NCBI RefSeq assembly: GCF_000027125.1
Contig: NC_017626.1
Reading direction: 5' to 3' (one strand)
DNA from: Escherichia coli 042
Lineage (GTDB): Bacteria > Pseudomonadota > Gammaproteobacteria > Enterobacterales > Enterobacteriaceae
DNA length: 64,000 nt
In this document: one piece after another, positions 1 through 50,168 of the stretch
Layout: every line of letters starts with the position of its first letter
Numbering within the stretch: position 1 is the first letter of the stretch
Translations under genes and position numbers: made by a program
Notes under the pieces: model-generated
Told to the model about the DNA's origin: nothing
The model's database searches: none
Seen by the model: only the letters and a program-made list of their open reading frames with translations

Positions 1-101
1 CCCAATACCTTGATATATTCTGAATTTTTAATGAAGCGGCGTGTTACGATATCTCCGTCAGGGGAATTGATGCACCATAGCGCAAACCGAATTATCAAGG
101 A

Positions 102-713
102 TTGATAATGACGCTCTACCAGATAAAACCGCTCTTTCAGTCGCTGTTAAGGCCGACGATGTTTTGGCTTAATAAGCACCATGTTACAGCGAATCACATC
201 ACTCTTGCTGCACTGGCACTTTCTCTTCTTAGCGGATTGCTGTTGATGTTGGTGGCACAACCCATCCTCTTTTTGCTATTGCCTATCGTGCTTTTTATCC
301 GTATGGCGCTCAATGCGCTGGATGGCATGATGGCGCGTGAGTGCAATCAGCAAACACATCTTGGGGCGATTTTGAATGAAACAGGCGATGTTATTTCCGA
401 TATTGCGCTTTATTTACCGTTTTTATTTTTACCGGAAAGTAACGCATCACTCGTAATACTCATGTTATTTTGCACCATATTGACTGAGTTTTGCGGTTTA
501 CTCGCGCAGACGATTAACGGTATTCGCAGTTATGCCGGTCCATTTGGCAAAAGCGATCGCGCGTTAATATTTGGTCTGTGGGGTCTGGCCATTGCCATTT
601 ATCCACAGTGGATGCAATGGAATAATCTTTTATGGGGCATTGCTTCAATTCTGCTTCTCTGGACTGCGATTAATCGTTGTCGGAGTGTGCTTTTTATGAG
701 TGCAGAAAGATAA
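102..713 (+). CDS. ynbA: CDP-alcohol phosphatidyltransferase family inner membrane protein YnbA
   Basis: 203-codon ORF (likely real start at the second Met, 108); hydrophobic multi-TM protein; matches remembered K-12 YnbA; stop overlaps ynbB ATG at 713. Confidence 0.88.
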   Translation: MIMTLYQIKPLFQSLLRPTMFWLNKHHVTANHITLAALALSLLSGLLLMLVAQPILFLLLPIVLFIRMALNALDGMMARECNQQTHLGAILNETGDVISDIALYLPFLFLPESNASLVILMLFCTILTEFCGLLAQTINGIRSYAGPFGKSDRALIFGLWGLAIAIYPQWMQWNNLLWGIASILLLWTAINRCRSVLFMSAER

Positions 714-877
714 TGCTGGAAAAATCTCTGGCAACACTTTTCGCGTTGTTAATTTTAGCAACGCTGATAAACCGTTTTCTGATATGGCGGTTACCGGAGA
801 GAAAAGGGGGTGAGGTTACATTACGTATTCGTACCTGGTGGGGCATCGTCATTTGTTTTTCAGGTAATGACTCCAAC

Positions 878-1255
878 TTATTGATAGTGTTTTATGTTCA
901 GATAATGCCCGATGACTTTGTCATGCAGCTCCACCGATTTTGAGAACGACAGCGACTTCCGTCCCAGCCGTGCCAGGTGCTGCCTCAGATTCAGGTTATG
1001 CCGCTCAATTCGCTGCGTATATCGCTTGCTGATTACGTGCAGCTTTCCCTTCAGGCGGGATTCATACAGCGGCCAGCCATCCGTCATCCATATCACCACG
1101 TCAAAGGGTGACAGCAGGCTCATAAGACGCCCCAGCGTCGCCATCGTGCGTTCACCGAATACGTGCGCAACAACCGTCTTCCGGAGACTGTCATACGCGT
1201 AAAACAGCCAGCGCTGGCGCGATTTAGCCCCGACATAGCCCCACTGTTCGTCCAT
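878..1255 (-). CDS. insB: IS1 InsB' transposase frame (expressed as InsAB' by -1 frameshift)
   Basis: 125-aa ORF from an internal Met, ...[70 protein letters not shown]; the frame extends further upstream without an ATG, as in canonical IS1. Confidence 0.85.
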
Positions 1256-1299
1256 TTCCGCGCAGACGATGACGTCACTGCCCGGCTGTATGCGCGAGG

Positions 1300-1575
1300 T
1301 TACCGACTGCGGCCTGAGTTTTTTAAGTGACGTAAAATCGTGTTGAGGCCAACGCCCATAATGCGGGCAGTTGCCCGGCAGCCAACGCCATTCATGGCCA
1401 TATCAATGATTTTCTGGTGCGTACCGGGTTGAGAAGCGGTGTAAGTGAACTGCAGTTGCCATGTTTTACGGCAGTGAGAGCAGAGATAGCGCTGATGTCC
1501 GGCGGTGCTTTTGCCGTTACGCACCACTCCGTCAGTAGCTGAACAGGAGGGACAGCTGATAGAAACAGAAGCCAC
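1300..1575 (-). CDS. insA: IS1 InsA transposition regulator
   Basis: 91-aa [45 protein letters not shown]... is the canonical IS1 InsA. Confidence 0.93.
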
Positions 1576-2401
1576 TGGAGCACCTCAAAAACACCATCAT
1601 ACACTAAATCAGTAAGTTGGCAGCATCACCTGTTTTTCAATGGTGATTTCAGGTCCACGCTGGATGACGTTGACGTTTTTTGCGCTGATAAGTTTTCTGG
1701 CATTGAAAGAATATTGTACGCTTATATCTGTACATTTTCCGCGTTGGTTATATTGGGGTATTCCTCTTAACTATTTGCTTATCGGTTTTAATTGCTTTGA
1801 GCTGTTTCTGTTATTTATACCTTTGGCTGGGTTTCTGATATTAGCCACTTGGCGAGTTTTTGTGGGTGACCCCTCCGGTTTTCTGCATACCGTGAGCGCC
1901 ATTTTTTGGGGCTGGATAATGACCGTTTTCGCCTTGAGTCATGCCGCCTGGTTGTTAATGTTGCCAACCATAAATATCCAGGGCGAGGCGTTACTGGTGT
2001 TATTTCTTTTGGCATTAACCGAGTCAAACGATATTGCACAGTATTTATGGGGAAAATCCTGCGGCAGAAGAAAAGTGGTCCCTAAAGTCAGCCCGGGAAA
2101 AACATTGGAAGGTCTGATGGGCGGCGTAATCACCACCATTATTGCGTCACTGATTATTGGACCGTTGCTGACACCGCTAGATACATTACAGGCATTATTA
2201 GCGGGTTTGTTAATTGGTATTAGTGGTTTTTGCGGCGATGTAGTGATGTCAGCCATCAAACGAAATATTGGTGTTAAAGATAGTGGAAAACTATTACCAG
2301 GACATGGCGGACTCCTTGACAGGATTGACTCATTAATTTTCACCGCTCCGGTATTTTTTTATTTTATTCGCTACTGCTGTTACTGAAGGAAAACAGAGAA
2401 A

Positions 2402-5465
<3,064 letters not shown>

Positions 5466-5518
5466 GCGGATTGAGATGTGGACTGAATATCTACAGTCCA
5501 CATCAAGATCGTGTCCGC

Positions 5519-6133
<615 letters not shown>

Positions 6134-6324
6134 TTATAGATGTTTGAATGGGCGATGCCCCGTTGCTTGTTGACACTTTATTCACAATCCTGCCACAGAG
6201 ATAGCGCAATAAATCGAAGCCTATGTTCGAATTTATTGAACAACGCATAGAAAGCCGCGATGTGGTACTCTATATCTATCATTTAAAAGAAAATTAATCA
6301 GGCAGCCTACTGCCCACTAACGTT

Positions 6325-9300
6325 ATGACAGAACAACAAAAATTGACCTTTACGGCCTTGCAGCAGCGGCTGGATTCGCTGATGCTGCGCGACAGACAGC
6401 GTTTTTCTCGCCGTCTGCACGGCGTGAAGAAGGTTAAAAATCCTGATGCACAACAGGCCATTTTCCAGGAGATGGCGAAAGAGATTGACCATGCGGCAGG
6501 GAAAGTCCTGCTGCGTGAAGCGGCACGACCGGAAATCACTTATCCGGACAATTTGCCGGTTAGTCAGAAAAAGCAGGACATTCTCGAAGCAATTCGTGAT
6601 CACCAGGTAGTGATCGTCGCCGGGGAAACGGGTTCCGGTAAAACGACTCAGCTACCGAAAATCTGTATGGAGCTGGGCCGCGGGATTAAAGGGCTGATCG
6701 GCCATACCCAGCCGCGTCGTCTGGCGGCGCGAACGGTGGCGAACCGTATTGCGGAAGAGCTGAAAACGGAGCCGGGCGGTTGCATCGGTTACAAAGTGCG
6801 TTTCAGCGATCACGTAAGTGATAACACGATGGTCAAGCTGATGACCGACGGTATCCTGCTGGCGGAGATCCAGCAAGACCGCCTGCTGATGCAGTACGAC
6901 ACCATCATTATTGACGAAGCGCACGAACGCAGCCTGAATATCGATTTTCTGCTCGGCTATTTGAAAGAGTTGCTGCCGCGGCGTCCTGACCTAAAAATCA
7001 TTATCACTTCCGCGACTATCGACCCGGAACGCTTTTCGCGCCACTTTAATAATGCGCCGATTATCGAAGTCTCCGGTCGGACCTATCCGGTGGAAGTGCG
7101 CTATCGCCCGATTGTTGAAGAAGCCGATGATACCGAGCGCGATCAGTTGCAGGCGATTTTTGACGCTGTAGACGAACTGAGCCAGGAAAGCCCTGGCGAC
7201 ATTCTGATCTTTATGAGTGGTGAGCGGGAAATTCGCGATACCGCCGATGCGCTGAACAAGCTGAACTTACGCCATACCGAAATCTTGCCGCTTTATGCGC
7301 GGCTTTCGAACAGCGAACAGAACCGCGTGTTCCAGTCGCACAGTGGACGGCGCATTGTGCTGGCGACCAACGTCGCGGAAACCTCGCTGACCGTACCGGG
7401 GATTAAATACGTTATCGACCCAGGTACGGCGCGTATCAGCCGCTACAGCTATCGCACTAAAGTGCAGCGTTTGCCGATTGAGCCGATTTCTCAGGCGTCT
7501 GCCAACCAGCGTAAAGGCCGCTGTGGTCGTGTGTCAGAAGGGATCTGTATTCGTCTCTATTCGGAAGATGATTTCCTGTCGCGCCCGGAGTTTACCGATC
7601 CGGAGATTCTGCGTACCAACCTGGCCTCGGTTATTTTACAGATGACCGCGTTGGGGCTGGGTGATATCGCCGCGTTCCCATTTGTCGAAGCGCCGGATAA
7701 ACGTAATATCCAGGATGGCGTGCGTCTGCTCGAAGAGCTGGGCGCGATCACCACTGATGAACAGGCCAGCGCCTATAAACTGACGCCGCTCGGTCGCCAG
7801 CTTTCGCAATTGCCTGTCGATCCTCGTCTGGCGCGTATGGTGCTGGAAGCGCAAAAACATGGCTGCGTGCGTGAGGCGATGATTATCACGTCCGCGCTCT
7901 CCATCCAGGATCCGCGCGAACGACCGATGGACAAACAGCAGGCATCGGACGAAAAACATCGTCGCTTCCACGACAAAGAATCCGACTTCCTCGCGTTTGT
8001 AAATCTGTGGAATTATCTTGGCGAGCAGCAAAAGGCGCTTTCTTCCAACGCCTTCCGTCGCCTGTGTCGTACCGATTATCTCAACTATCTGCGCGTGCGC
8101 GAATGGCAGGATATCTACACCCAGTTGCGCCAGGTAGTAAAAGAACTTGGCATTCCAGTTAACAGCGAACCGGCGGAGTATCGCGAAATTCACATCGCCT
8201 TACTGACCGGTTTGCTTTCCCATATCGGCATGAAAGATGCCGATAAACAAGAATATACCGGCGCACGTAACGCGCGTTTTTCCATCTTTCCCGGTTCTGG
8301 TTTATTCAAAAAGCCGCCGAAATGGGTAATGGTGGCGGAACTGGTAGAAACCAGCCGCCTGTGGGGGCGCATTGCGGCACGCATCGATCCAGAATGGGTG
8401 GAGCCAGTTGCTCAGCATTTAATTAAACGCACCTACAGCGAACCACACTGGGAACGGGCGCAGGGCGCGGTGATGGCAACGGAAAAAGTCACCGTTTACG
8501 GGTTGCCGATTGTTGCCGCGCGTAAGGTCAACTACAGCCAGATCGATCCGGCGTTATGTCGTGAACTCTTTATTCGCCACGCGCTGGTGGAAGGTGACTG
8601 GCAGACACGTCATGCATTCTTCCGTGAAAACCTGAAACTGCGGGCTGAAGTGGAAGAACTGGAACACAAAACACGTCGCCGCGATATTCTGGTGGATGAC
8701 GAAACGCTGTTTGAGTTTTATGACCAGCGCATCAGCCACGATGTGATCTCTGCACGTCACTTCGACAGCTGGTGGAAAAAAGTCAGCCGCGAAACGCCTG
8801 ATTTGCTCAACTTTGAAAAGAGCATGTTGATCAAAGAAGGGGCGGAAAAGATCAGCAAGCTGGATTACCCGAACTTCTGGCATCAGGGCAATCTCAAACT
8901 GCGTTTGAGCTATCAGTTTGAGCCGGGGGCAGATGCTGACGGTGTGACTGTGCATATCCCGCTGCCGTTACTTAACCAGGTTGAGGAGAGCGGGTTTGAG
9001 TGGCAGATCCCCGGTCTGCGCCGCGAACTGGTGATTGCTCTGATTAAATCGTTGCCGAAACCAGTACGCCGTAATTTTGTGCCCGCGCCAAACTACGCCG
9101 AAGCTTTTTTAGGCCGCGTCACACCGCTGGAATTGCCGTTGCTCGACAGCCTTGAACGAGAGCTGCGGCGGATGACTGGCGTCACCGTTGACCGCGAAGA
9201 CTGGCACTGGGATCAGGTGCCCGATCACCTGAAAATCACCTTCCGCGTGGTGGATGACAAAAACAAGAAGCTAAAAGAAGGGCGCTCATTACAGGATCTG

Positions 9301-10227
9301 AAAGATGCTCTGAAAGGCAAAGTGCAGGAAACGCTGTCTGCGGTGGCGGATGACGGTATCGAGCAGAGCGGCTTACATATCTGGAGTTTTGGGCAACTGC
9401 CGGAAAGCTACGAACAGAAGCGTGGCAACTACAAAGTGAAGGCGTGGCCAGCGTTGGTGGATGAGCGCGACAGCGTGGCGATCAAACTGTTTGATAACCC
9501 GCTGGAACAAAAGCAGGCAATGTGGAACGGTCTTCGCCGTTTACTGCTGCTGAATATTCCGTCGCCAATCAAATATTTGCATGAGAAGTTGCCAAACAAA
9601 GCCAAACTTGGGCTGTACTTTAACCCGTATGGCAAAGTGCTGGAGCTGATAGACGACTGTATCTCCTGCGGTGTGGATCAACTGATCGACGCCAATGGTG
9701 GCCCGGTCTGGACGGAAGAAGGCTTTGCTGCGCTGCATGAAAAAGTCCGCGCTGAACTGAACGACACGGTGGTGGATATTGCGAAGCAGGTCGAGCAAAT
9801 CCTTACGGCAGTGTTCAATATCAACAAACGCCTGAAAGGGCGGGTGGATATGACCATGGCGCTGGGGCTTTCTGACATTAAAGCGCAGATGGGCGGGCTG
9901 GTGTATCGCGGTTTTGTCACTGGCAACGGTTTTAAACGGCTGGGCGACACGCTGCGTTATTTGCAGGCGATTGAAAAACGACTGGAAAAACTGGCGGTTG
10001 ATCCGCATCGCGACCGTGCTCAGATGCTGAAAGTCGAAAATGTCCAGCAGGCGTGGCAGCAGTGGATCAACAAACTGCCGCCTGCACGTCGTGAGGATGA
10101 AGACGTGAAAGAGATCCGTTGGATGATAGAAGAGTTGCGCGTCAGCTACTTCGCTCAACAACTTGGTACGCCTTATCCGATTTCGGATAAGCGTATTTTG
10201 CAGGCGATGGAGCAGATTAGCGGTTAA
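6325..10227 (+). CDS. hrpA: ATP-dependent RNA helicase HrpA (DEAH-box)
   Basis: 1300-aa ORF with Walker A GETGSGKTTQ, DEAH box and helicase C-terminal motifs. Confidence 0.96.
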   Translation: MTEQQKLTFTALQQRLDSLMLRDRQRFSRRLHGVKKVKNPDAQQAIFQEMAKEIDHAAGKVLLREAARPEITYPDNLPVSQKKQDILEAIRDHQVVIVAGETGSGKTTQLPKICMELGRGIKGLIGHTQPRRLAARTVANRIAEELKTEPGGCIGYKVRFSDHVSDNTMVKLMTDGILLAEIQQDRLLMQYDTIIIDEAHERSLNIDFLLGYLKELLPRRPDLKIIITSATIDPERFSRHFNNAPIIEVSGRTYPVEVRYRPIVEEADDTERDQLQAIFDAVDELSQESPGDILIFMSGEREIRDTADALNKLNLRHTEILPLYARLSNSEQNRVFQSHSGRRIVLATNVAETSLTVPGIKYVIDPGTARISRYSYRTKVQRLPIEPISQASANQRKGRCGRVSEGICIRLYSEDDFLSRPEFTDPEILRTNLASVILQMTALGLGDIAAFPFVEAPDKRNIQDGVRLLEELGAITTDEQASAYKLTPLGRQLSQLPVDPRLARMVLEAQKHGCVREAMIITSALSIQDPRERPMDKQQASDEKHRRFHDKESDFLAFVNLWNYLGEQQKALSSNAFRRLCRTDYLNYLRVREWQDIYTQLRQVVKELGIPVNSEPAEYREIHIALLTGLLSHIGMKDADKQEYTGARNARFSIFPGSGLFKKPPKWVMVAELVETSRLWGRIAARIDPEWVEPVAQHLIKRTYSEPHWERAQGAVMATEKVTVYGLPIVAARKVNYSQIDPALCRELFIRHALVEGDWQTRHAFFRENLKLRAEVEELEHKTRRRDILVDDETLFEFYDQRISHDVISARHFDSWWKKVSRETPDLLNFEKSMLIKEGAEKISKLDYPNFWHQGNLKLRLSYQFEPGADADGVTVHIPLPLLNQVEESGFEWQIPGLRRELVIALIKSLPKPVRRNFVPAPNYAEAFLGRVTPLELPLLDSLERELRRMTGVTVDREDWHWDQVPDHLKITFRVVDDKNKKLKEGRSLQDLKDALKGKVQETLSAVADDGIEQSGLHIWSFGQLPESYEQKRGNYKVKAWPALVDERDSVAIKLFDNPLEQKQAMWNGLRRLLLLNIPSPIKYLHEKLPNKAKLGLYFNPYGKVLELIDDCISCGVDQLIDANGGPVWTEEGFAALHEKVRAELNDTVVDIAKQVEQILTAVFNINKRLKGRVDMTMALGLSDIKAQMGGLVYRGFVTGNGFKRLGDTLRYLQAIEKRLEKLAVDPHRDRAQMLKVENVQQAWQQWINKLPPARREDEDVKEIRWMIEELRVSYFAQQLGTPYPISDKRILQAMEQISG

Positions 10228-10253
10228 CCCTGCTATTTGCCTGATAAATCTCA

Positions 10254-10286
10254 AACCCGGTAAGCATTTAGCGCCGGGTTTTTTCT
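10254..10286 (+). terminator. Rho-independent terminator downstream of hrpA
   Basis: Inverted repeat aacccgg ... ccgggtt followed by a T-run (ttttttc). Confidence 0.6.
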
Positions 10287-10457
10287 TTATGAATTCTGAA
10301 AAATAGCAAGGGCGGTACTATTTTACATAAGTTACATTCATACTCTGCCCATGGTAAACAGGACGTATTGCAATGAGTAGGCATGATATTTTAATGAGAT
10401 CGTATTATGAGCGAATAATAGAGCTTGATTGCGTCGGTCAGGCTTTAATCTCTTTCT

Positions 10458-10850
10458 ATGAAAAACTTCCAGAGGAAATTTTATCAGAAAATAATGGATT
10501 GGATTAATAGTATGAAAAATGTAGACAATATTATCTGGCATGATGGTGTTTTAGTTGAAACAAGAATGGAATGTCACCACGCCGGGTATAATTTTATATT
10601 GACGACAGAACTTTATGTTGATGAATTTACAGCCGGAAGGGAACGAAAAAGATTCGAGTTTACAGGAGTGGAACATTTATCGCAGGTTATGGATATTGCT
10701 GAGCTTATAGATAACCAAAACGCAGGTAATATTAAAGATGCGACAATTGTTTATAAGGCAAAGAAGTATGAAATTTCACTTCATTTGTTTGGCGGTTTTT
10801 TAAGTTTTACATTTAAAACCATGCGAGTTGTTGACAATGAATTTGAGTAA
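10458..10850 (+). CDS. Hypothetical protein, islet ORF A (start uncertain)
   Basis: 130-codon ORF in an AT-rich block; alternative starts at 10494 and 10512; no recognisable motif; its stop overlaps ORF B. Confidence 0.45.
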   Translation: MKNFQRKFYQKIMDWINSMKNVDNIIWHDGVLVETRMECHHAGYNFILTTELYVDEFTAGRERKRFEFTGVEHLSQVMDIAELIDNQNAGNIKDATIVYKAKKYEISLHLFGGFLSFTFKTMRVVDNEFE

Positions 10851-11286
10851 TGCCAAATGCGACAAATTGTCTTTTTATGAAGAAAAAATCCGCTGGCGAA
10901 TGCGTCGGCAAATCTCGAATGCAGAGGCAATATTTTACGAGAATCAGGAAGAACACATTCAGCGCTTTTTAGGCAGATATACCTGTCGCAAACCGGTTCT
11001 TGTTTATTGGGAAAGTGAACAAAGATGGACATCTGTAAACGGTCTGGAAGTGATGAGTATGTTTGATGGGCATTGTCATCACATCTACCTTGATGATATC
11101 AATAAAAAAATACAAGCTGAATTACCTGAAGATAAAACATTAGGTTTCAAACGTCAATTGCAATTTTTCAGTTTAGGGGATGAGAAGATTAGAATATGGG
11201 TGCCACAGGGGGAATTATATTTCGCATTAATGAATGTATTGCAGATGTTCCCCCTGAAGAAAATGGTTAATGACTGGACAAGGTAA
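10828..11286 (+). CDS. Hypothetical protein, islet ORF B
   Basis: 152-codon ORF (alternative start 10837) overlapping the end of ORF A, suggesting translational coupling; AT-rich; no recognisable motif. Confidence 0.45.
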   Translation: MLTMNLSNAKCDKLSFYEEKIRWRMRRQISNAEAIFYENQEEHIQRFLGRYTCRKPVLVYWESEQRWTSVNGLEVMSMFDGHCHHIYLDDINKKIQAELPEDKTLGFKRQLQFFSLGDEKIRIWVPQGELYFALMNVLQMFPLKKMVNDWTR

Positions 11287-11404
11287 TTTCAAATCACAGT
11301 AATGTCCATCGATTATACATGGTACGTAAACAGACTCGCACCGTTTTTGCAGAAGGTTAATGTGTGTCTATTGAGTGCAGTCTCATATATGAAGGGGTAT
11401 TGAC

Positions 11405-11782
11405 ATGGATGAATGTTTTATAAATATCACTCCGACTTCATTGTCTTTTAAAAACGCCGATCTGTCAGATTTAAGCTATAAAAATGCCAGGCTTGAACTT
11501 ACCCTGATATGCCCGGCGATCAAGTCAGAAGTTAAGTTATCATTTGACTGGATACATTCATTTCGTGTTACTGACGAAGGTGATTTGTTAGGAATGTCAG
11601 GAATGCACGGTATTAACCAAACAGGTATCTATAGAGTAGTGAATTCCGCCTATTTTTCATGGTTTACTATGCAAAGTTGTGAAATTTATAAAAATAATGT
11701 GATCGAGCATTATGTCATTGCCACGTCAAATGATGTTATTGATGTTTTATCAACAGTTTCTCCGCAAATACAGTATGACTAA
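11405..11782 (+). CDS. Hypothetical protein, islet ORF C
   Basis: 125-codon ORF on the same strand, 118 bp downstream of ORF B; AT-rich; no recognisable motif. Confidence 0.4.
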   Translation: MDECFINITPTSLSFKNADLSDLSYKNARLELTLICPAIKSEVKLSFDWIHSFRVTDEGDLLGMSGMHGINQTGIYRVVNSAYFSWFTMQSCEIYKNNVIEHYVIATSNDVIDVLSTVSPQIQYD

Positions 11783-11897
11783 AACCAGTGTCTGGTTCGC
11801 GATGGCGAGGTAGAAAAAGCATCATCTTCCTTTCAGAGTGCTCCGCTTCTCATTATTATCTCACGCAGTATTCTTAAGGAAACGATAAGGAGGAACC

Positions 11898-12698
11898 ATG
11901 AACATTACCCCGTTTCCGACGCTTTCGCCGGCAACCATAGATGCCATAAATGTTATCGGTCAGTGGCTGGCGTAGGATGATTTCTCCGGTGAGATGCCGT
12001 ATCAGGCCGATTGCGTGATCCTTGCAGGCAATGCGGTTATGCCAACTATCGATGCGGCATGCAAGATTGCCCGCGATCAGCAAATTCCTCTACTGATTAG
12101 TGGTGGTATCGGTCACTCGACAACTTTTTTGTATAGTGCCATCGCACAGCATCCGCACTACAACACTATCCGCACCACTGGCAGAGCAGAAGCTACCATC
12201 CTGGCGGATATCGCTCATCAGTACTGGCACATTCCGCATGAAAAAATCTGGATTGAAGACCAGTCAACAAACTGCGGTGAAAACGCACGCTTTAGCATCT
12301 CGCTATTGAATCAGGCCGTAGAACGAGTTCATACGGCTATCGTTGTTCAGGACCCCACAATGCAGCGGCGCACGATGGCGACGTTCCGCCGTATGACTGG
12401 GGACAATCCCGATGCACCACGCTGGTTAAGTTATCCCGGATTCGTTCCTCAGCTAGGAAACAACGCAGACAGTGTAATCTTTGTTAATCCGTTGCAAGGA
12501 TTATGGCCGGTTGAGCGTTATCTCTCACTACTCACTGGCGAGCTGCCACGTTTACGCGATGATAGCGATGGCTACGGTCCACGCGGGCGAGATTTTATCG
12601 TTCACGTTGATTTTCCGGCAGAAGTCATCCAGGCATGGCAAACGCTGAAACACGATGCGGTGCTCATCGAGGCGATGGAAAGTCGCTCGTTACGTTAA
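11898..12698 (+). pseudogene. ydcF: ydcF (DUF218 family) carrying an in-frame amber codon at codon 26
   Basis: Strong SD (aaggagg) plus ATG at 11898; frame reads MNITPFPTLSPATIDAINVIGQWLA, then TAG at 11973..11975, then continues in the same frame; next ATG at 11994 gives the 234-codon ORF. The two parts total 266 codons, the length remembered for K-12 YdcF. Confidence 0.6.
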
Positions 12699-12894
12699 AA
12701 ATTGCCCGTTTGTTAACCATTTGTTTGCAAACGGGCATGACTCCTGACGTTTATTTCTGCCTTTTATTCCTTTTACACTTGTTTTTATGAAGCCCTTCAC
12801 AGAATTGTCCTTTCACGATGCCGTCTCTATGATGATTGATGTTAATTAACAATGCATTTACCAATAACAAACATATAAATCACAGGAGTCGCCC

Positions 12895-14334
12895 ATGTCA
12901 GTACCCGTTCAACATCCTATGTATATCGATGGACAGTTTGTTACCTGGCGTGGAGACGCATGGATTGATGTGGTAAACCCTGCTACAGAGGCGGTCATTT
13001 CCCGCATTCCCGATGGTCAGGCCGAGGATGCCCGTAAGGCAATCGATGCAGCAGAACGTGCACAACCAGAATGGGAAGCGTTGCCTGCCATTGAACGCGC
13101 CAGTTGGTTGCGCAAAATCTCCGCCGGGATCCGAGAACGCGCCAGTGAAATCAGTGCGCTGATTGTTGAAGAAGGGGGCAAGATCCAGCAGCTGGCTGAA
13201 GTCGAAGTGGCTTTTACTGCGGACTATATCGATTACATGGCGGAGTGGGCACGGCGTTATGAAGGCGAGATTATTCAAAGCGATCGTCCAGGAGAAAATA
13301 TTCTTCTGTTTAAACGTGCGCTTGGCGTGACTACCGGCATTCTGCCGTGGAACTTCCCGTTCTTCCTCATTGCCCGCAAAATGGCTCCCGCTCTTTTGAC
13401 CGGTAATACCATCGTCATTAAACCCAGTGAATTTACGCCAAACAATGCGATTGCTTTTGCCAAAATTGTCGATGAAATAGGCCTTCCACGCGGTGTGTTT
13501 AACCTTGTGCTAGGGCGTGGTGAAACCGTTGGGCAAGAACTGGCGGGTAACCCAAAGGTCGCAATGGTCAGTATGACAGGCAGCGTCTCTGCAGGTGAAA
13601 AGATCATGGCGACTGCAGCAAAAAATATCACAAAAGTGTGTCTGGAATTGGGTGGTAAAGCACCAGCTATCGTAATGGACGATGCCGATCTTGAACTGGC
13701 AGTCAAAGCCATCGTTGATTCACGCGTCATTAATAGTGGGCAAGTGTGTAACTGTGCAGAACGTGTTTATGTACAGAAAGGCATTTATGATCAGTTCGTC
13801 AATCGGCTGGGTGAAGCGATGCAGGCGGTGCAATTTGGTAACCCCGCTGAACGCAACGACATTGCGATGGGGCCGTTGATTAACGCCTCGGCGCTGGAAA
13901 GGGTCGAGCAAAAAGTGGCGCGCGCAGTAGAAGAGGGGGCGAGAGTGGCGTTGGGGGGCAAGGCAGTAGAGGGGAAAGGATATTATTATCCGCCGACATT
14001 GCTGCTGGATGTTCGCCAGGAAATGTCGATTATGCACGAGGAAACCTTTGGCCCGGTGCTGCCAGTGGTCGCATTTGACACGCTGGAAGAGGCTATCGCA
14101 ATGGCTAATGACAGTGATTACGGCCTGACCTCATCAATCTATACCCAAAATTTGAACGTCGCGATGAAAGCCATTAAAGGGCTGAAGTTTGGTGAAACTT
14201 ACATTAACCGTGAAAACTTCGAAGCTATGCAAGGCTTCCACGCCGGATGGCGTAAATCCGGTATTGGCGGCGCAGATGGTAAACATGGCTTGCATGAATA
14301 CCTGCAGACCCAGGTGGTTTATTTACAGTCGTAA
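12895..14334 (+). CDS. aldA: Lactaldehyde dehydrogenase
   Basis: 479-aa ORF matching AldA; aldehyde dehydrogenase catalytic Cys/Glu motifs. Confidence 0.96.
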   Translation: MSVPVQHPMYIDGQFVTWRGDAWIDVVNPATEAVISRIPDGQAEDARKAIDAAERAQPEWEALPAIERASWLRKISAGIRERASEISALIVEEGGKIQQLAEVEVAFTADYIDYMAEWARRYEGEIIQSDRPGENILLFKRALGVTTGILPWNFPFFLIARKMAPALLTGNTIVIKPSEFTPNNAIAFAKIVDEIGLPRGVFNLVLGRGETVGQELAGNPKVAMVSMTGSVSAGEKIMATAAKNITKVCLELGGKAPAIVMDDADLELAVKAIVDSRVINSGQVCNCAERVYVQKGIYDQFVNRLGEAMQAVQFGNPAERNDIAMGPLINASALERVEQKVARAVEEGARVALGGKAVEGKGYYYPPTLLLDVRQEMSIMHEETFGPVLPVVAFDTLEEAIAMANDSDYGLTSSIYTQNLNVAMKAIKGLKFGETYINRENFEAMQGFHAGWRKSGIGGADGKHGLHEYLQTQVVYLQS

Positions 14335-14344
14335 TGAGTGAAAG

Positions 14345-14367
14345 AGGCGGAGGTTTTTCCCTCCGCC
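14345..14367. terminator. Hairpin between convergent aldA and gapC
   Basis: Inverted repeat aggcggagg / cctccgcct with a 5-nt loop. Confidence 0.5.
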
Positions 14368-14375
14368 TTTGCGCG

Positions 14376-15377
14376 TCAGAGTTTAGCGAATTTTTCGAGG
14401 GTGCGAATAAGCTGCGTGACGAAGCCATATTCGTTATCGTACCAGGCGACCGTTTTCACCAGTTGTAAATCGCCCACGGCGGTAATTTCCGTTTGCGTGG
14501 CATCAAACACCGACCCGAAATGGCTGCCAATGATATCAGAAGAGACTATTTCTTCATCGGTATAACCAAATGACTCGTTATTGTTTGTCGCCTTTTTAAG
14601 CGCGTTGTTCACCTCTTCGGCAGTCACTTTTTTTCCAAGAATAGACACCAGTTCAGTCACCGAACCTGTTTTCACGGGTACGCGTTGCGCATGACCTTTC
14701 AGTTTGCCGCTCAGTTCCGGGATCACCAGACCAATGGCTTTTGCCGCACCTGTAGTGTGGGGAATGATATTTTCTGCCGCTGCACGTGAAGCGCGTAGAT
14801 CTTTACCTCGCGGACCATCCACCAGTGACTGAGTGCCGGTATAGGCATGAATGGTCGTCATCGTGCCGACTTCTATTCCGAAACTGTCGTGCAAGGCTTT
14901 GGCCATCGGTGCAAGACAGTTAGTGGTGCATGACGCCACGGAAACAATGGTGTCGTTGCCATCCAGTGTGTCGTCATTGACGTTATAAACGATGGTTTTC
15001 ATTTCACCGGCAGGGGCGGAAATCAACACTTTCTTCGCACCAGCATCAAGATGCGCCTGCGATTTCTCGGCGGAGGTATAAAAGCCAGTACATTCGACAA
15101 TGATTTCTGCGCCTTTCGCTTTCCATGGAATATTTTTAGCCTCTTTTTCGGCGTAAACCGCGATACTTTTTCCATCAACGATAAGTGAATCTTCCGTAAA
15201 ATCAACGCGCCAGGGGAACGGACCATAGTTTGAATCATGTTTCAGCAGATAGGCGAGAATTTTTGGGGAAGTGAGATCATTAATAGCAACAATGTCTATG
15301 TTGCTTTTGACTTCAAGTAATCGACGCAACACCAGTCGACCGATACGACCAAAACCGTTAATACCAACTTTACTCAT
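14376..15377 (-). CDS. gapC: Glyceraldehyde-3-phosphate dehydrogenase C (intact)
   Basis: Uninterrupted 333-aa ORF with NAD-binding GFGRIGR and catalytic SCTTNC motifs. Confidence 0.9.
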
Positions 15378-15565
15378 GGTCTTCTCCTGTCAGGAACGTT
15401 CGGATGAAAATTGATCCTTTCCAGGCTTAGACCAGGATGGCGGGATGGGCAATCTACATTCTTGCCGTGAAACGTAACGTACTGAAAACGGGTGAACAAT
15501 ATTTAATGAAATTTTAAGAAAAGCTCGTTATGTTAACGGAAAATTGTTTTAAAGCAGGAAATGTT

Positions 15566-16096
15566 ATGGAAAATAAATACTCAAGGTTACAAATCAGCAT
15601 TCACTGGCTGGTCTTTTTGCTGGTTATCGCAGCGTATTGCGCAATGGAGTTTCGTGGTTTCTTCCCACGTAGCGATCGGCCGCTCATCAACATGATTCAT
15701 GTTTCCTGTGGCATCACAATTCTCGTGCTGATGGTGATTCGTCTTTTGTTAAGGCTGAAATACCCAACCCCGCCGATTATACCTAAGCCAAAACCGATGA
15801 TGACGGGACTGGCGCATTTGGGACATTTGGTGATCTATCTCCTGTTTATTGCGCTGCCAGTGATTGGTTTGGTGATGATGTATAACCGGGGCAACCCGTG
15901 GTTTGCGTTTGGTATGACGATGCCTTATGCATCAGAGGCCAATTTCGAACGGGTTGATAGCTTAAAGTCGTGGCATGAAACGCTGGCAAATCTGGGATAC
16001 TTTGTCATCGGGTTGCACGCTGCGGCTGCACTGGCACACCACTATTTCTGGAAGGACAACACACTTCTACGCATGATGCCGCGTAAACGTTCCTGA
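15566..16096 (+). CDS. cybB: Cytochrome b561
   Basis: ORF from 15530; start placed at MENKYSRLQISIHW (176 aa); multi-TM, His-rich haem ligands. Confidence 0.9.
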   Translation: MENKYSRLQISIHWLVFLLVIAAYCAMEFRGFFPRSDRPLINMIHVSCGITILVLMVIRLLLRLKYPTPPIIPKPKPMMTGLAHLGHLVIYLLFIALPVIGLVMMYNRGNPWFAFGMTMPYASEANFERVDSLKSWHETLANLGYFVIGLHAAAALAHHYFWKDNTLLRMMPRKRS

Positions 16097-16340
16097 AGGA
16101 TATTTAAAGAAAACGCCTGTACTAAAACCGACCCGTGGTACAGGCGAAGAATACGGGTCTACATCGGAAGCGCCTATTATATTTATTTGTGTGACAAATA
16201 AAACCATAATCCTGGTCCATACGTCCATCTGGCTTATCTTTAATCAATTCACCCGATCTTTGATCTCATCAACGGTATCAAAATAAACCAGCGTATAACG
16301 TTCAAATCGAACATAAGATTCGATAAACCATGGAGGTTAT

Positions 16341-16586: not shown

Positions 16587-16736
<150 letters not shown>

Positions 16737-16759
16737 AGCCTTTCTCCTTGCCGGATGGC

Positions 16760-16830
16760 GGGTAAGAGGCTAAGATCTGAATTGCTAGGTTCATTCGTTG
16801 GCCTCGGTTGATAGAAATATCGGTCGGGGC
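16760..16830 (+). ncRNA. sokB: Probable sokB antisense RNA region (approximate)
   Basis: Position antisense to the mokB/hokB leader, by analogy with hok/sok loci; boundaries not determined. Confidence 0.3.
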
Positions 16831-17134
16831 CTTCGTCTTTCTGATTCCCGGTTAGCCTGAAAACAGAAAGTCTCAGGCACCCGTGAGCATCCTATGTGGT
16901 TTCCTTAGGGACGAAAATAATCACCTGACGAAATTGCGTGCTGTTTTCCAGAATTTTTCGTCATTCGGTTTAGCCAGTTTAATCATTCGTTACTCTCTTC
17001 ATTCCAATGGCATTATTCTTCTCTGCCATAATTGTTGTAAAAATGTGACGCAAAGAGGTTTTTGGTCGTAAGAAATTACCGTCAAGTGCCGATGACTTTC
17101 TATCAGGAGTAAACCTGGAAGAGAGTCAACGGTA

Positions 17135-25237: not shown

Positions 25238-26230
25238 ATGCAGAGCGATAAAGTGCTCAATTTGCCGGCAGGCTACTTTGGTATTGTGTTGGGGACGATA
25301 GGGATGGGATTTGCCTGGCGCTATGCCAGCCAGGTTTGGCAGGTCAGCCACTGGTTAGGGGATGGGCTAGTGATTCTGGCGATGATCATCTGGGGATTAT
25401 TGACTAGCGCATTTATTACCCGACTCATACGCTTTCCGCATAGCGTGCTGGCGGAAGTGCGTCATCCAGTGATGAGCAGTTTTGTGAGTTTGTTTCCGGC
25501 AACGACGATGCTGGTGGCGATTGGTTTTGTTCCGTGGTTTCGCCCACTGGCGGTGTGCCTGTTCAGTTTTGGCGTCGTGGTGCAACTGGCTTATGCCGCC
25601 TGGCAAACTGCGGGATTATGGCGCGGATCTCATCCTGAAGAAGCTACCACGCCTGGACTGTATCTGCCGACAGTTGCCAACAACTTTATCAGCGCAATGG
25701 CCTGTGGTGCATTGGGCTACACCGACGCTGGTCTGGTGTTTTTAGGCGCAGGCGTTTTCTCATGGTTAAGCCTGGAACCGGTGATCTTGCAGCGTCTGCG
25801 CAGTTCGGGAGAATTACCCACGGCGCTGCGGACATCACTCGGCATTCAGCTCGCTCCTGCGCTGGTGGCCTGTAGTGCCTGGCTGAGCGTCAACGGCGGC
25901 GAGGGTGACACGCTGGCGAAAATGCTTTTCGGTTATGGGCTGCTGCAACTGCTGTTTATGCTACGTCTGATGCCATGGTATCTCTCCCAGCCATTTAATG
26001 CTTCATTCTGGAGTTTCTCGTTCGGCGTATCTGCACTGGCAACCACCGGTTTGCATCTGGGGAGTGGCAGCGATAATGGATTTTTCCATACGCTGGCGGT
26101 GCCGCTGTTTATCTTTACCAATTTTATAATTGCAATACTGCTCATCCGTACTTTCGCGCTTCTGATGCAGGGGAAATTGTTAATCAGAACCGAGCGCGCC
26201 GTTTTAATGAAAGCTGAGGACAAAGAATGA
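25238..26230 (+). CDS. tehA: Tellurite resistance / dicarboxylate-type transporter TehA
   Basis: ORF from 25130; start placed at [19 protein letters not shown] (330 aa); ~10 TM helices. Confidence 0.9.
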
Positions 26231-26820
26231 TCATTCGTGACGAAAACTATTTTACTGATAAGTATGAATTAACCCGCACACACTCTGAAGTACTGGAAGC
26301 GGTGAAAGTGGTTAAACCCGGTAAAACGCTGGATCTGGGCTGTGGCAATGGTCGTAATAGTCTTTACCTGGCAGCCAATGGTTATGAAGTTGACGCATGG
26401 GATAAAAATGCCATGAGTATCGCCAACGTCGAGCGTATTAAATCCATTGAAAATCTGGATAATTTACACACCCGGGTCGTTGATCTGAATAACCTTACGT
26501 TTGATGGGCAATACGATTTTATTCTTTCGACTGTGGTGCTGATGTTCCTTGAGGCTAAAACCATCCCAGGGCTGATTGCCAATATGCAACGTTGCACTAA
26601 ACCTGGCGGTTACAACCTGATTGTGGCGGCGATGGATACCGCTGATTATCCATGTACCGTCGGCTTCCCGTTTGCCTTCAAAGAGGGAGAATTACGTCGA
26701 TATTACGAAGGCTGGGAGATGGTGAAATACAATGAAGACGTCGGCGAGCTGCACCGCACCGACGCCAACGGTAATCGTATTAAACTGCGTTTCGCCACGA
26801 TGCTGGCACGTAAAAAATAA
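26227..26820 (+). CDS. tehB: Tellurite methyltransferase TehB
   Basis: 197-aa ORF with SAM-binding motif [11 protein letters not shown]; start overlaps tehA stop. Confidence 0.94.
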
Positions 26821-31660: not shown

Positions 31661-31729
31661 AACGCCAGTTTTCTGGTTACTCACAACTTATCAAATCTGC
31701 ATGATATTGTTGGCCGGGTAAGGCGTTAC

Positions 31730-32484
<755 letters not shown>

Positions 32485-32588
32485 ATCAGCATACTTGTCC
32501 TTAGCCTTCTGCAGTGACAGCTGGTAGTACAGCGTGCTTCTGGCCAGCCCTGCAGCCTTTAACAGGTCAGACTGGCAGTGTCCGCACC

Positions 32589-33119
32589 TCAGGCTCCGGA
32601 TGACTTTCGTTTTTTCTCCAGCTCCTGGCGCTTTTTTTCCAGGAGATGCTCCTGCATGGCTTTCAGATATGCATTTTCTGCGCGAAGATAACGCAGCTCA
32701 TTCTTCATCTCTTCCGGCGTCATGTTTGCCTCGTTTTCATGGGTATCATCAGAACGGGTCATGCTTTTCTCCTTCCTGCGCCTGATAAAGGCCTCATTAC
32801 CAGATTTGCGGTAGCCTTTTATCCAGTTTTTAACCGTGTTGTGGCTGGGAATGTTAAACCGGGCAGCTACCCGGGGTAGAGACTCAGAATGCCCGAGAGC
32901 ATAAAGAACCACGCAAAGTTTATCTTCAGGAGAATAGCTACGCTTGTGTCTGCAATCCAGTGCCCGAGGACCGTGAAGAAGAAAAAGATTAATCCAGTGT
33001 GAGAGGCTGGTGTGAGAAAGTTGAAAGAGTTTTGCCGTAGAAATGATGCCTGCATGACCAGCCAGGTAATGATTTACAGCGGCAAGTTTTACTTCAAATG
33101 AATGTTTCATAAACTGCAC
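32589..33119 (-). CDS. IS3-family transposase OrfA (HTH)
   Basis: 176-aa ORF with HTH and leucine-zipper-like C-terminus, ending in an A-rich slippery run (gagaaaaaacga). Confidence 0.88.
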   Translation of the reverse strand: MQFMKHSFEVKLAAVNHYLAGHAGIISTAKLFQLSHTSLSHWINLFLLHGPRALDCRHKRSYSPEDKLCVVLYALGHSESLPRVAARFNIPSHNTVKNWIKGYRKSGNEAFIRRRKEKSMTRSDDTHENEANMTPEEMKNELRYLRAENAYLKAMQEHLLEKKRQELEKKRKSSGA

Positions 33120-33186
33120 CTTCAGATGTCAGATTATGTCCAACATTTGGGGTGCAGTTCATACGCCGCATCCGGCAATAAATGAC

Positions 33187-43252: not shown

Positions 43253-43337
43253 ATCTTACTCACTGGCTTGACGGCACCACACAGACTTATATCATTTGGA
43301 TGAATCGATAAATTTCACAAGTGGCTAAGGAGAAAGT

Positions 43338-43571
43338 ATGTCGCATCTGGATGAAGTCATCGCGCGCGTGGATGCCGCGATTGAAGAGAGCGTCATTGCC
43401 CATATGAACGAATTATTAATCGCCCTGAGCGATGACGCGGAGTTAAGTCGGGAAGATCGCTATACCCAGCAGCAGCGTTTGCGCACCGCTATTGCTCATC
43501 ATGGTCGCAAGCATAAAGAAGATATGGAAGCGCGCCACGAACAGTTAACCAAAGGCGGTACCATCCTCTGA
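43338..43571 (+). CDS. ydcY: DUF2526 family protein YdcY
   Basis: 77-aa ORF MSHLDEVIARVDAAIEESVIAHMNELL... Confidence 0.85.
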   Translation: MSHLDEVIARVDAAIEESVIAHMNELLIALSDDAELSREDRYTQQQRLRTAIAHHGRKHKEDMEARHEQLTKGGTIL

Positions 43572-44021
43572 TTAAAATGAGCGTCTGGCCACCAGCCAGG
43601 CGCCAACCACAAGTAAAATTGCGCCACAAATTGGGCCGATCAACGCCCGAAGTGGTACGCCATGGCTGCGGAAGATATCCAGCACCAGACCGCCAATCAG
43701 CTGGCTGGCGACCAGTACTGCAATAGTTGTTGCCGCTCCCACATTCTGATATCCGCTGATACTGGCGAAGACAAAAAACGATCCAAGCAAGCCAGGTATA
43801 AGTGTCCACCAGCGCACGCTGGACACCAGTTCACCAAACCCCTCCATACCTTGTTTAAACCACAAAATAGAAACGAACAGCACAATTCCTACCAAAGAGT
43901 TCAGCAACATGGCGATGAGAATGGTAGAGGAGCTCTGGGTGATGCGCACCATCAGCGTGTTTTGCACCACCAGACCAATTCCGGCGGCAATCAAAAAAGC
44001 AAGGGTAAGCGACTGATTCAT
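43572..44021 (-). CDS. ydcZ: Inner membrane protein YdcZ (DMT-like)
   Basis: 149-aa hydrophobic ORF. Confidence 0.85.
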   Translation of the reverse strand: MNQSLTLAFLIAAGIGLVVQNTLMVRITQSSSTILIAMLLNSLVGIVLFVSILWFKQGMEGFGELVSSVRWWTLIPGLLGSFFVFASISGYQNVGAATTIAVLVASQLIGGLVLDIFRSHGVPLRALIGPICGAILLVVGAWLVARRSF

Positions 44022-44536
44022 CCAATCGCGTCCGGTTCAGTGCGCTCGTCGAGTTGCAACTGCATAAATGTCAGATCCAGCCAGCGCCCAAATTTAGTGC
44101 CTACCTGCGGCATTTGCGCGGTGACGACAAATCCCAGCGACTGGTGGAGATGCAGCGAAGCCTGATTTTGCGATTCGATCCCCGCGACCATGACATGCTT
44201 CCCGCAATCCCGCGCTTCATCAATCAATCGGCTTAACAATTTACGCCCCAGACCTTTGCCCTGATGATCGGGATGGACATAAACCGAATGTTCCACGGTA
44301 TGGCGAAAACCATCGAAACTACGCCAGTCGCCAAACGAGGCATATCCTGTAACGACGCCATCTTCTTCACTCACCAGCACCGGATAACCTGCTATGGTCC
44401 GCGCTTCAAACCAGGCAATGCGGTTATCTGCATCCACCGTTTGGTCATTCCAGATAGCCGCCGTATACAACACGGCGTGGTTATAAATTTCCGCAATGGC
44501 AGCACAGTCGGCTTTGCGGGCAAAACGGATGGACAT
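44018..44536 (-). CDS. mnaT: L-amino acid (methionine derivative) N-acyltransferase, GNAT
   Basis: 172-aa GNAT ORF (HQGKGLGRKLL). Confidence 0.9.
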   Translation of the reverse strand: MSIRFARKADCAAIAEIYNHAVLYTAAIWNDQTVDADNRIAWFEARTIAGYPVLVSEEDGVVTGYASFGDWRSFDGFRHTVEHSVYVHPDHQGKGLGRKLLSRLIDEARDCGKHVMVAGIESQNQASLHLHQSLGFVVTAQMPQVGTKFGRWLDLTFMQLQLDERTEPDAIG

Positions 44537-44716
44537 GTCTGGCCTCGATTAAATAATGATGATGACGTTATCAATACTATCGAAAACAGCCCGAAGCAAC
44601 GGATTCCTCGATGAAATTATTGCGTGTTGCAGAGGGGATGTGACGGCTGCAAACAAAACCAATCCCGTGAGCCTGCTACTATTGATCGATTCATGCCAAA
44701 AGCACAGGAGAGCATT

Positions 44717-45754
44717 ATGGGGCAACAAAAACAGCGTAATCGACGTTGGGTTCTGGCCTCGCGTCCGCATGGCGCGCCGGTTCCGGAGAATTTCCGTCTT
44801 GAAGAAGATGATATCGCCACACCGGGTGAGGGACAGGTGTTACTGCGCACAGTTTATTTGTCACTGGACCCGTATATGCGTGGACGTATGAGCGATGAGC
44901 CATCTTATTCACCGCCGGTTGATATTGGCGGCGTGATGGTCGGCGGCACGGTGAGCCGTGTCGTGGAGTCGAATCATCCTGATTATCAGCCTGGCGACTG
45001 GGTGCTGGGCTACAGTGGATGGCAGGACTATGACATATCCAGTGGTGATGATCTGGTGAAACTTGGCGATCATCCGCAAAATCCATCGTGGTCGCTGGGT
45101 GTGCTGGGGATGCCAGGCTTTACCGCTTATATGGGGCTGCTGGATATCGGTCAGCCCAAAGAGGGCGAAACGCTGGTGGTAGCTGCGGCGACAGGACCAG
45201 TGGGGGCGACGGTGGGTCAAATCGGCAAACTTAAAGGTTGCAGGGTGGTGGGGATAGCCGGTGGCGCGGAAAAATGCCGCCATGCTACCGAGGTGTTAGG
45301 CTTTGATGTTTGTCTTGACCATCACGCGGATGATTTTGCCGAACAACTGGCGAAAGCGTGCCCAAAAGGCGTTGATATCTATTATGAAAACGTGGGCGGT
45401 AAAGTATTTGATGCGGTGCTACCGTTACTTAATACATCTGCGCGCATTCCCGTCTGCGGCTTAGTGAGCAGCTATAACGCTACAGAGCTACCACCCGGCC
45501 CGGATCGTTTACCTCTGCTGATGGCTACGGTGCTGAAAAAACGTATTCGCTTGCAAGGATTTATTATCGCTCAGGATTATGGTCACCGCATCCATGAGTT
45601 TCAGAAGGAGATGGGGCAATGGGTGAAAGAGGATAAAATCCACTACCGCGAAGAAATTACTGACGGTTTAGAGAATGCGCCACAGACATTTATCGGCCTG
45701 CTGAAGGGTAAAAACTTCGGCAAAGTGGTGATCCGCGTGGCGGGTGATGATTAA
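44717..45754 (+). CDS. curA: NADPH-dependent curcumin/dihydrocurcumin reductase
   Basis: ORF from 44624; start placed at MGQQKQRNRRWVLASRPHGAP (345 aa); MDR/zinc-free reductase motif AAATGPVG. Confidence 0.9.
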   Translation: MGQQKQRNRRWVLASRPHGAPVPENFRLEEDDIATPGEGQVLLRTVYLSLDPYMRGRMSDEPSYSPPVDIGGVMVGGTVSRVVESNHPDYQPGDWVLGYSGWQDYDISSGDDLVKLGDHPQNPSWSLGVLGMPGFTAYMGLLDIGQPKEGETLVVAAATGPVGATVGQIGKLKGCRVVGIAGGAEKCRHATEVLGFDVCLDHHADDFAEQLAKACPKGVDIYYENVGGKVFDAVLPLLNTSARIPVCGLVSSYNATELPPGPDRLPLLMATVLKKRIRLQGFIIAQDYGHRIHEFQKEMGQWVKEDKIHYREEITDGLENAPQTFIGLLKGKNFGKVVIRVAGDD

Positions 45755-45951
45755 AGATACGACGGCGGCGTAAGCCGCCATAAAAATCCAGGCAAAAAGC
45801 TTATTTTCAGCTTTAATTAACTAACCACGTCATTGTTCTGCTGCTAATAACAACAAAGGTGAGTGGTTTATGATTATTCACTTTAATACCCCAGGTGAAC
45901 TCCTTCTGCCATGCAGGCAGGGTTGGACAGAAAACACGCGAAGGAATTAAA

Positions 45952-46617
45952 ATGCCTGGAACGGAAAAAATGAAACATGTCAGTTTGACTCTGCAGGTTG
46001 AGAATGACCTGAAACATCAGCTTAGTATTGGCGCACTAAAACCTGGCGCACGCCTGATTACTAAAAATCTGGCGGAGCAATTAGGTATGAGTATTACACC
46101 TGTGCGTGAAGCATTATTACGTCTGGTTTCGGTGAATGCGCTTTCTGTCGCACCAGCGCAAGCATTTACAGTTCCGGAAGTGGGGAAACGTCAATTAGAC
46201 GAAATCAATCGGATCCGCTACGAGCTGGAATTAATGGCAGTTACTCTGGCTGTTGAAAACCTCACCCCGCAAGACCTGGCGGAACTCGAGGAATTGCTCG
46301 AGAAATTACAGCAGGCGCAAGAAAAGGGCGACATGGAACAAATCATTAATGCGAACAGGCTATTTCGCTTAGCGATTTATCATCGTTCAAATATGCCCAT
46401 CCTGTGTGAGATGATTGAGCAACTGTGGGTCAGGATGGGACCTGGTTTACATTATCTCTATGAAGCGATTAATCCAGCGGAATTACGGGAGCGTATAGAA
46501 AACTATCGTCTATTACTCGCCGCGTTAAAAGCAAAAGACAAAGAGGGATGCAGACATTGTCTTGCTGAAATTATGCAACAAAATATTGCTATTTTATACC
46601 AGCAATACAATCGTTAA
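45952..46617 (+). CDS. mcbR: GntR-family regulator McbR (YncC)
   Basis: ORF from 45895; start placed at MPGTEKMKHVSL (221 aa); GntR HTH plus FCD domain. Confidence 0.9.
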   Translation: MPGTEKMKHVSLTLQVENDLKHQLSIGALKPGARLITKNLAEQLGMSITPVREALLRLVSVNALSVAPAQAFTVPEVGKRQLDEINRIRYELELMAVTLAVENLTPQDLAELEELLEKLQQAQEKGDMEQIINANRLFRLAIYHRSNMPILCEMIEQLWVRMGPGLHYLYEAINPAELRERIENYRLLLAALKAKDKEGCRHCLAEIMQQNIAILYQQYNR

Positions 46618-46633
46618 AGTAAATGCCCGGCAA

Positions 46634-46653
46634 ATACCGGGCATCAAGGTAAT
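46634..46653. terminator. Hairpin between convergent mcbR and yncD
   Basis: tgcccgg caaata ccgggca. Confidence 0.55.
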
Positions 46654-48755: not shown

Positions 48756-48996
48756 GAAAAAAGCCAGGTTAAGAATGGGAAAACGCCGCCATGGTAATAA
48801 AATTGTAAATATATGGAAAACGAAACGGCACGATACGTTAAGTAATTGAGAAAATTGTAGTCGTAACGGCAAGAAATGCTCCACATTTGAGAAAATAATG
48901 ATTACCATTCCCATTTATAACAAGAGCGTAACGATGATTACGCTTAGCGAAGCATTGTGAAGCAGCAAAAATATCGGTTCATCAAAGGGAGTCGTC

Positions 48997-50058: not shown

Positions 50059-50140
50059 TAGATATGGCGAGGGTGAAAACGGAGAGACTTGCCTGACTTT
50101 TATCACGCCGTATCCGGTACCTTCGTCAGTAATTTGAATT

Positions 50141-50168
50141 TGCCCGGCACGTAGCCGGGCAATTTTGC
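50141..50168. terminator. Hairpin between convergent yncE and ansP
   Basis: gcccggc acgta gccgggc followed by aatttt. Confidence 0.55.

Follow-up and report, generated by a model that had tools for sequence, protein, structure and literature searches.

The ydcF frame lies at positions 11898-12698 of the plus strand in the window, i.e. the whole 64-kb stretch of E. coli DNA that was analysed. Direct reading, the list of open reading frames (ORFs) and the translation of 11898-12701 all give the same composition, with 266 codons made up of 25 sense codons, a TAG, six further codons and a last block of 234. A Shine-Dalgarno (SD) sequence, AAGGAGG at 11887-11893 (+), stands 4 bases 5' of the ATG at 11898-11900 and marks the native start; its predicted pairing with the 3' tail of the 16S rRNA amounts to -12.2 kcal/mol. 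Further upstream, a consensus scan picked out a candidate promoter-like site at 11832-11859 (+), which is formed by TTCAGA, a 16-nt spacer and TATTAT and agrees with the consensus at 9 of 12 positions. Similarity to K-12 resumes at 11825, so that this site falls just within the shared sequence.

Codons 1-25 (11898-11972, +) encode MNITPFPTLSPATIDAINVIGQWLA, which represents most of the conserved helix alpha-1; translation from the native start covers no other part of ydcF. The amber codon follows at 11973-11975 as codon 26 and takes the place of the CAG of Gln26 through a derived C-to-T change at 11973. Past the stop the same frame reads DDFSGE (codons 27-32, 11976-11993), a variable linker in orthologues, and then reaches an ATG at 11994, which is found 21 bp past the T of the TAG and 18 nt past the end of the stop. 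This ATG (Met33) is a candidate restart and opens the remaining 234 codons, closed by the TAA at 12696-12698, so that the segment 11994-12698 (+) holds the DUF218 domain. A second ATG, out of frame and one nucleotide after the TAG, opens a mini-ORF of 13 codons ended by a TGA (11977-12018, +). The original prediction had named the SD, the ATG at 11898, the TAG at 11973-11975, the in-frame Met at 11994 and the 234 codons behind it, and all of these were confirmed to the base. It had also summed the two parts to 266 codons, which is true of the whole frame but not of the two ORFs alone: these add up to 259, the difference of seven codons being due to the stop and to the six codons of DDFSGE.

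On the 5' side of ydcF, the window carries an islet of low GC content between hrpA and ydcF (10302-11824, 1.5 kb, 36.7% compared to 48% for the window), whereas K-12 has 128 bp at this place, which the islet replaces. Three hypothetical ORFs are found in the islet (10512-10850, 10837-11286 and 11405-11782) and no Pfam family was matched by any of the three. At the same spot the related strains GF43 and N3 hold a different cassette, which lies on the opposite strand and includes an SMI1/KNR4-family protein. Such variation among strains suggests a hotspot of integration at this site, possibly for orphan genes of the immunity type.

On the 3' side, aldA is located 196 bp from ydcF (spacer 12699-12894), and both aldA and the spacer are conserved with K-12. 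Further along, gapC (14376-15377, minus strand) is intact in the window with 333 codons and encodes a type I glyceraldehyde-3-phosphate dehydrogenase. In K-12 MG1655, gapC is a pseudogene two genes 3' of ydcF and, like ydcF here, exhibits the strain-specific inactivation of a dispensable gene; the arrangement is reversed, however, since the window has gapC intact and ydcF broken while in K-12 it is gapC that is broken. The Rfam search displayed the sRNA RydC at 16107-16170 (minus strand, 92.5 bits) and the sok antitoxin RNA of hokB/sokB at 16731-16882 (minus strand, 109.7 bits), both at their K-12 positions relative to cybB and hokB. Towards the other end of the window, the region of 53397-55802 and its surroundings contains yncE, ansP, a tssI/VgrG type VI secretion tip gene and yddE, as named from the annotation of identical DNA elsewhere.

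Once codon 26 is restored to Gln, residues 1 to 266 of the protein align with residues 1 to 266 of 3CA8 chain A (E = 4.5e-181), 3CA8 being the crystal structure of E. coli K-12 YdcF, a protein of 266 aa with Gln at residue 26. The alignment with K-12 ydcF, which the original prediction had proposed as a check, hence runs residue for residue over 266 aa with a Gln at position 26. The repaired protein is 97-98% identical to K-12 YdcF, and with the same restoration Pfam DUF218 (PF02698) is matched over residues 39-171 at 54.5 bits, for a gathering cut-off of 27.6. Furthermore, ydcF of MG1655 (b1414) is annotated as an 801-nt gene starting at the upstream ATG between hrpA and aldA, and the order hrpA-ydcF-aldA is common to the window and K-12. 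Given this identity and the shared gene order, the TAG pattern is not due to chance.

The two sequences of ydcF differ at 22 nucleotides, corresponding to 15 synonymous changes, six missense changes (V33M, F109Y, A135S, I196V, Q198P and H245Q) and the nonsense change. Counting the stop, seven of the 266 codons thus differ in meaning (the six missense ones and codon 26, CAG in K-12 against TAG here), while the locus, the 266-codon frame, the SD and the start are alike. Sequence, structure and synteny all identify the locus as the orthologue of ydcF, but its frame is interrupted by the TAG at codon 26; it is therefore a ydcF pseudogene with an internal stop and not a functional member of the YdcF / DUF218 family. 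YdcF is the sole cytoplasmic one among the four DUF218 proteins of E. coli and binds S-adenosyl-L-methionine, its physiological role being obscure (PMC3879167; PMC12176290). A paper in which a protein of the YdcF family figures as an interactor of type VI secretion was set aside, as it concerns a distant Pseudomonas protein and has no bearing on the ydcF locus.

Over codons 1-32 the window differs from K-12 by two synonymous changes and the nonsense change only, and the SD AAGGAGG is identical. At codon 33, K-12 has GTG (Val), and Met33 is thus a lineage-specific V33M variant. The native start combines its strong predicted SD pairing with an open local mRNA structure, predicted at -8.6 kcal/mol. 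To this can be added an alignment of 18 enterobacterial orthologues, all of 263-267 residues, from Escherichia albertii, Citrobacter, Salmonella, Leclercia, Silvania, Kosakonia, Lelliottia, Enterobacter and Trabulsiella. In this alignment no variation is seen at F6, L9, A16, N18, G21, W23, L24 and A25, and the stretch of positions 27-36 is a variable linker; none of the 18 sequences starts near residue 33. The upstream ATG is the true start: K-12 does not begin at the downstream Met, which the original prediction had considered as a reason to abandon the nonsense reading, given that it has a GTG there, is annotated from the upstream ATG and shares the conserved residues 6-25. The Met at 11994 was likewise rejected as a native start on the grounds of Val33 in K-12, of the upstream annotation and of the starts of the orthologues.

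The segment in front of the stop was also considered at the structural level. An AlphaFold2 model built from the 18-orthologue alignment shows a mean pLDDT of 87, with a helix at residues 11-25 predicted at pLDDT 91-98, and the superposition of the model on 3CA8 gives a TM score of 0.90-0.93, with all ordered residues aligned (259-261 in chains of 266). Since the superposition covers every ordered residue of the crystal structure, the N-terminal helix, as modelled, belongs to the ordered portion of that structure, and the amber codon comes directly after it. A role of helix alpha-1 in YdcF is suggested by the alignment and the model together.

The direction of the change was examined by a megablast of positions 11800-12760 (961 bp) against 5,426 complete RefSeq E. 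coli genomes. In 5,414 of them ydcF was found, and at least 80% of the 961-bp query is covered by a single piece in 5,369. The nearest complete genome, GF60, exhibits a single difference over the 961 bp, which is located at position 11973 with a C in GF60 against the T of the window; the further relatives GF43 and N3 have a C at 11973 too. Across the longer interval of 6200-16325, the window and GF60 are separated by three SNPs, of which one is synonymous, one is intergenic and one is the change at 11973. Contigs carrying the parental allele were found through the intact protein (WP_054623665.1 / P0016). One of them, L014 from run SRR8240396, is the same as the window over 20,801 bases except for a C at 11973, and another, L015, displays one difference from the window beyond 11973. 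In total six intact-allele contigs (L013, L014, L015, L018, L020 and L022) were compared base by base and all six carry C at 11973.

The intact parental allele, as found in GF60 and in the SRR8240396 contig, is thus the same DNA bar one base, with CAG as codon 26 and the full 266 aa. A CAG-to-TAG nonsense mutation, as the original prediction supposed, is borne out by the C present at 11973 in every intact relative examined, GF60 and L014 included. As the relatives with an intact allele all carry C at this position, TAG is, on these comparisons, the derived state, arisen from CAG very recently and on exactly this haplotype. The usual cause of a CAG-to-TAG change is the deamination of 5-methylcytosine in CCWGG. 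A Dcm hotspot at 11973 was rejected, the context being GCAGG and the only Dcm sites of ydcF being found at 12200 and 12629.

A single-base difference from the nearest complete genome could also be produced by a sequencing or assembly error, in which case the true sequence would be CAG and ydcF would be intact. The survey of complete RefSeq genomes is compatible with such an error, as the TAG is seen in none of the 5,426: in the 61-bp context of the window, 392 matches were obtained with no exact one among them, all having one mismatch, and in a K-12-like context there was no exact one among 5,318 matches. In public draft assemblies, however, the exact 234-aa remnant starting at Met33, annotated as "YdcF family protein", is found on 22 contigs that come from separate assemblies and projects. 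The check at the DNA level covered two of these 22 contigs, from different assembly projects, and both of them, L004 (12,705 bases) and L005 (7,714 bases), match the window at every base across their 12.7 kb and 7.7 kb, TAG included. Moreover, of the 46 genes that the window has in common with GF60, none apart from ydcF contains an internal stop or a disrupted frame, which argues against low-quality sequence. An error at 11973 is therefore next to impossible, and the lesion, for which the original prediction had allowed an artefact, is genuine, its allele having been assembled independently on 22 contigs. A poor assembly or a genome in decay was rejected on the same gene count, the only split gene of the window being ynbB, which is interrupted by a clean IS1 insertion.

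Short-read assemblies break at repeats such as insertion sequences. Most of the contigs with the remnant are about 30.4 kb long, which is about the distance between the IS1 at 863-1631 and the IS1397 at 31729-33162 in the window (a 30.1-kb segment). Both IS1 and IS1397 are hence common to the drafts and the window, which come from the same clone. The IS1 of 863-1631 splits ynbB and is flanked by a perfect 9-bp target duplication, TGTTTTTCA, at 854-862 and 1632-1640; GF60 is without this IS1 and has copies of its own at other nearby positions. IS1397, an element of the IS3 family, sits in the intergenic region between rlhA and yncJ and is absent from GF60 as well.

The relatedness of the window to other strains varies along its length. 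From 6300 to 41000 it is nearly identical to GF60, but the segments 1-6200 and 43300-49650 are only 93-99% identical, and the last 15 kb (49000-64000) are 100% identical to KK05-19, ESC818 and JNE25-001, with the exception of an IS1397 that is found in those strains. This shift of the nearest relative along the window is consistent with recombination. Within the window tehB (26227-26820) is an uninterrupted frame of 594 nt, whereas in GF60 a 10-bp difference is observed and the gene is annotated as frameshifted.

With a genuine stop, a full-length product would require read-through of the amber by a suppressor tRNA or by a near-cognate tRNA-Gln, which would give meaningful amounts of wild-type YdcF. 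Suppressors of the supE type and near-cognate tRNA-Gln insert Gln at amber codons, which happens to be the ancestral residue, and ydcF past the stop has not decayed. Basal read-through is very low, however, and to our knowledge natural isolates rarely carry strong amber suppressors. Furthermore, no tRNA gene is present within the 64-kb window, and neither a recoding RNA family nor any other Rfam family was found at the amber site. The stop itself is not conserved, with CAG in every relative, and nothing points to a programmed event; given its absence from all relatives and from all 5,426 complete genomes, programmed recoding can be excluded on these comparisons. Read-through to any meaningful extent is on the whole highly improbable.

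The remaining route to a product is a restart at Met33. Classical early-amber restart mutants are known in lacI and in rIIB of phage T4. There, as in ydcF here, an in-frame start lies only a few codons past an early amber, so that an N-terminally truncated restart product is conceivable, and the ATG at 11994, 18 nt past the stop and directly preceded by the SD-like GGTGAG, resembles such sites. A 234-aa YdcF without residues 1-32 could in this way be made with useful activity: the whole DUF218 domain (39-171) is kept, annotation pipelines call the 234-aa ORF as a protein, and the 234-aa sequence is unchanged on all 22 contigs, which the youth of the allele explains too. Unlike the lacI and rIIB cases, however, ydcF combines a weak SD with an 18-nt spacing and a nearer out-of-frame ATG, and its restart product is a candidate only. 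Indeed, the predicted SD pairing at ATG 11994 is merely -3.6 kcal/mol compared to -12.2 kcal/mol at the native start, and the predicted local structure is stronger, with -17.6 against -8.6 kcal/mol, which does not make a usable ribosome-binding context.

The start nearest the amber is not the in-frame one but the ATG at 11977, whose 13-codon ORF reads through 11994, and a scanning ribosome takes the start nearest the stop (PMC12548453). In native E. coli gene pairs a stop-to-start spacing of about 20 nt nearly abolishes termination-reinitiation (PMC10666635), although reports differ on how coupling varies with distance (PMC12548453). The TGA of the mini-ORF (12016-12018) overlaps an in-frame GTG at 12015 as GTGA, and one may speculate that such an overlap might let ribosomes return to the frame of ydcF at Val40. 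On these sequence features, ribosomes may restart at 11994 but are expected to do so weakly, and the 234-aa product should be scarce, owing to the weak SD, the stronger structure, the 18-nt spacing and the nearer out-of-frame ATG.

Any 234-aa product would moreover be devoid of the invariant N-terminal helix and would probably be unstable or inactive, even if some residual function is possible with the DUF218 domain kept in the remnant. The lost segment comprises eight invariant residues and a helix that is both confidently predicted and ordered in the crystal, none of the 18 orthologues starts near residue 33, and Met33 itself is specific to the lineage. A rescue of YdcF function by reinitiation is thus unlikely. 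The original prediction, supported in both its observation and its interpretation, had left the choice between a pseudogene and a truncated product; on the evidence, a pseudogene is more likely than a useful reinitiation product.

Lesions of this kind are not restricted to the clone studied here. The 90%-identity cluster that contains the truncated product has many shortened YdcF entries, and four contigs (L006-L009) on one other allele background (P0004) display four different N-terminal lesions, i.e. a Q22 amber, a 1-bp deletion, a W23 opal and a Q26 amber. Between the window and L008, the contig with the Q26 amber, 68 sites differ over about 2.3 kb, and the amber of L008 therefore represents a separate event. 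As in the window, these early lesions leave a 234-codon remnant that is called as a gene; unlike in the window, the background is K-12-like with GTG at codon 33, and all four contigs are annotated with one and the same 234-aa "YdcF family protein" starting from this GTG. This shows that gene callers systematically turn early ydcF null alleles into a shorter protein.

Such recurrence, together with the presence of the allele in at least 22 sequenced isolates, could suggest that the nonsense allele was selected because the loss of YdcF benefits the clone. Within codons 1-32, however, there are six single-base routes to a stop and the four that are transitions fall at codons 22, 23 and 26, which are the codons seen to be hit, and a look-up by the 234-aa product recovers only lesions upstream of codon 33. 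Mutation and ascertainment thus predict the recurrence. A mutational hotspot at codons 22-26 was rejected for the same reasons, these being the only stops accessible by transition in codons 1-32 and the look-up being biased. Furthermore, 5,414 of the 5,426 complete genomes have ydcF, and its loss is not known to cause any phenotype (PMC3879167). The recurrence of lesions is what neutral mutation predicts given the very large number of sequenced E. coli, selection is not evident, and an adaptive loss of ydcF is very unlikely.

We consider it very probable that a genuine and very recent C-to-T change at 11973 converted Gln26 into an amber codon in one E. coli clone and that the resulting allele is most likely a functional null. 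Ribosomes would start at the strong native ribosome-binding site, make a 25-residue peptide and terminate at the TAG, so that the remaining ~700 nt of the ydcF message would be largely untranslated and at most a trace of the 234-residue protein would be produced from Met33. The allele would then persist as a neutral or nearly neutral young pseudogene, as ydcF is dispensable in the laboratory. Indeed, single, triple and quadruple deletions of DUF218 genes including ydcF (with sanA, ygjQ and elyC) gave no phenotype attributable to ydcF (PMC3879167), and cells should therefore tolerate a null allele. A polar effect on aldA would not be expected either, aldA and its spacer being conserved with K-12.

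The ydcF allele is thus an ordinary, very young and clone-specific loss-of-function allele of a dispensable gene, which is already present, unremarked, in public assemblies. It is of little importance beyond correct annotation, the proper one being a ydcF pseudogene with an internal stop instead of the 234-aa "YdcF family protein" of several public records, and it provides an example of a gene caller making a plausible shorter protein from an early nonsense allele. The SNP at 11973 can serve as a clean marker of the sub-clone, since siblings that are identical over 20 kb still carry C, and the natural near-isogenic CAG/TAG pair is usable in the search for a YdcF phenotype. There is a slim chance that either the product from Met33 is made with retained or altered activity, or the loss of YdcF is advantageous and aided the spread of the clone; if one of these were true, the allele would be the first natural tool for finding out what the cytoplasmic DUF218 protein YdcF does.
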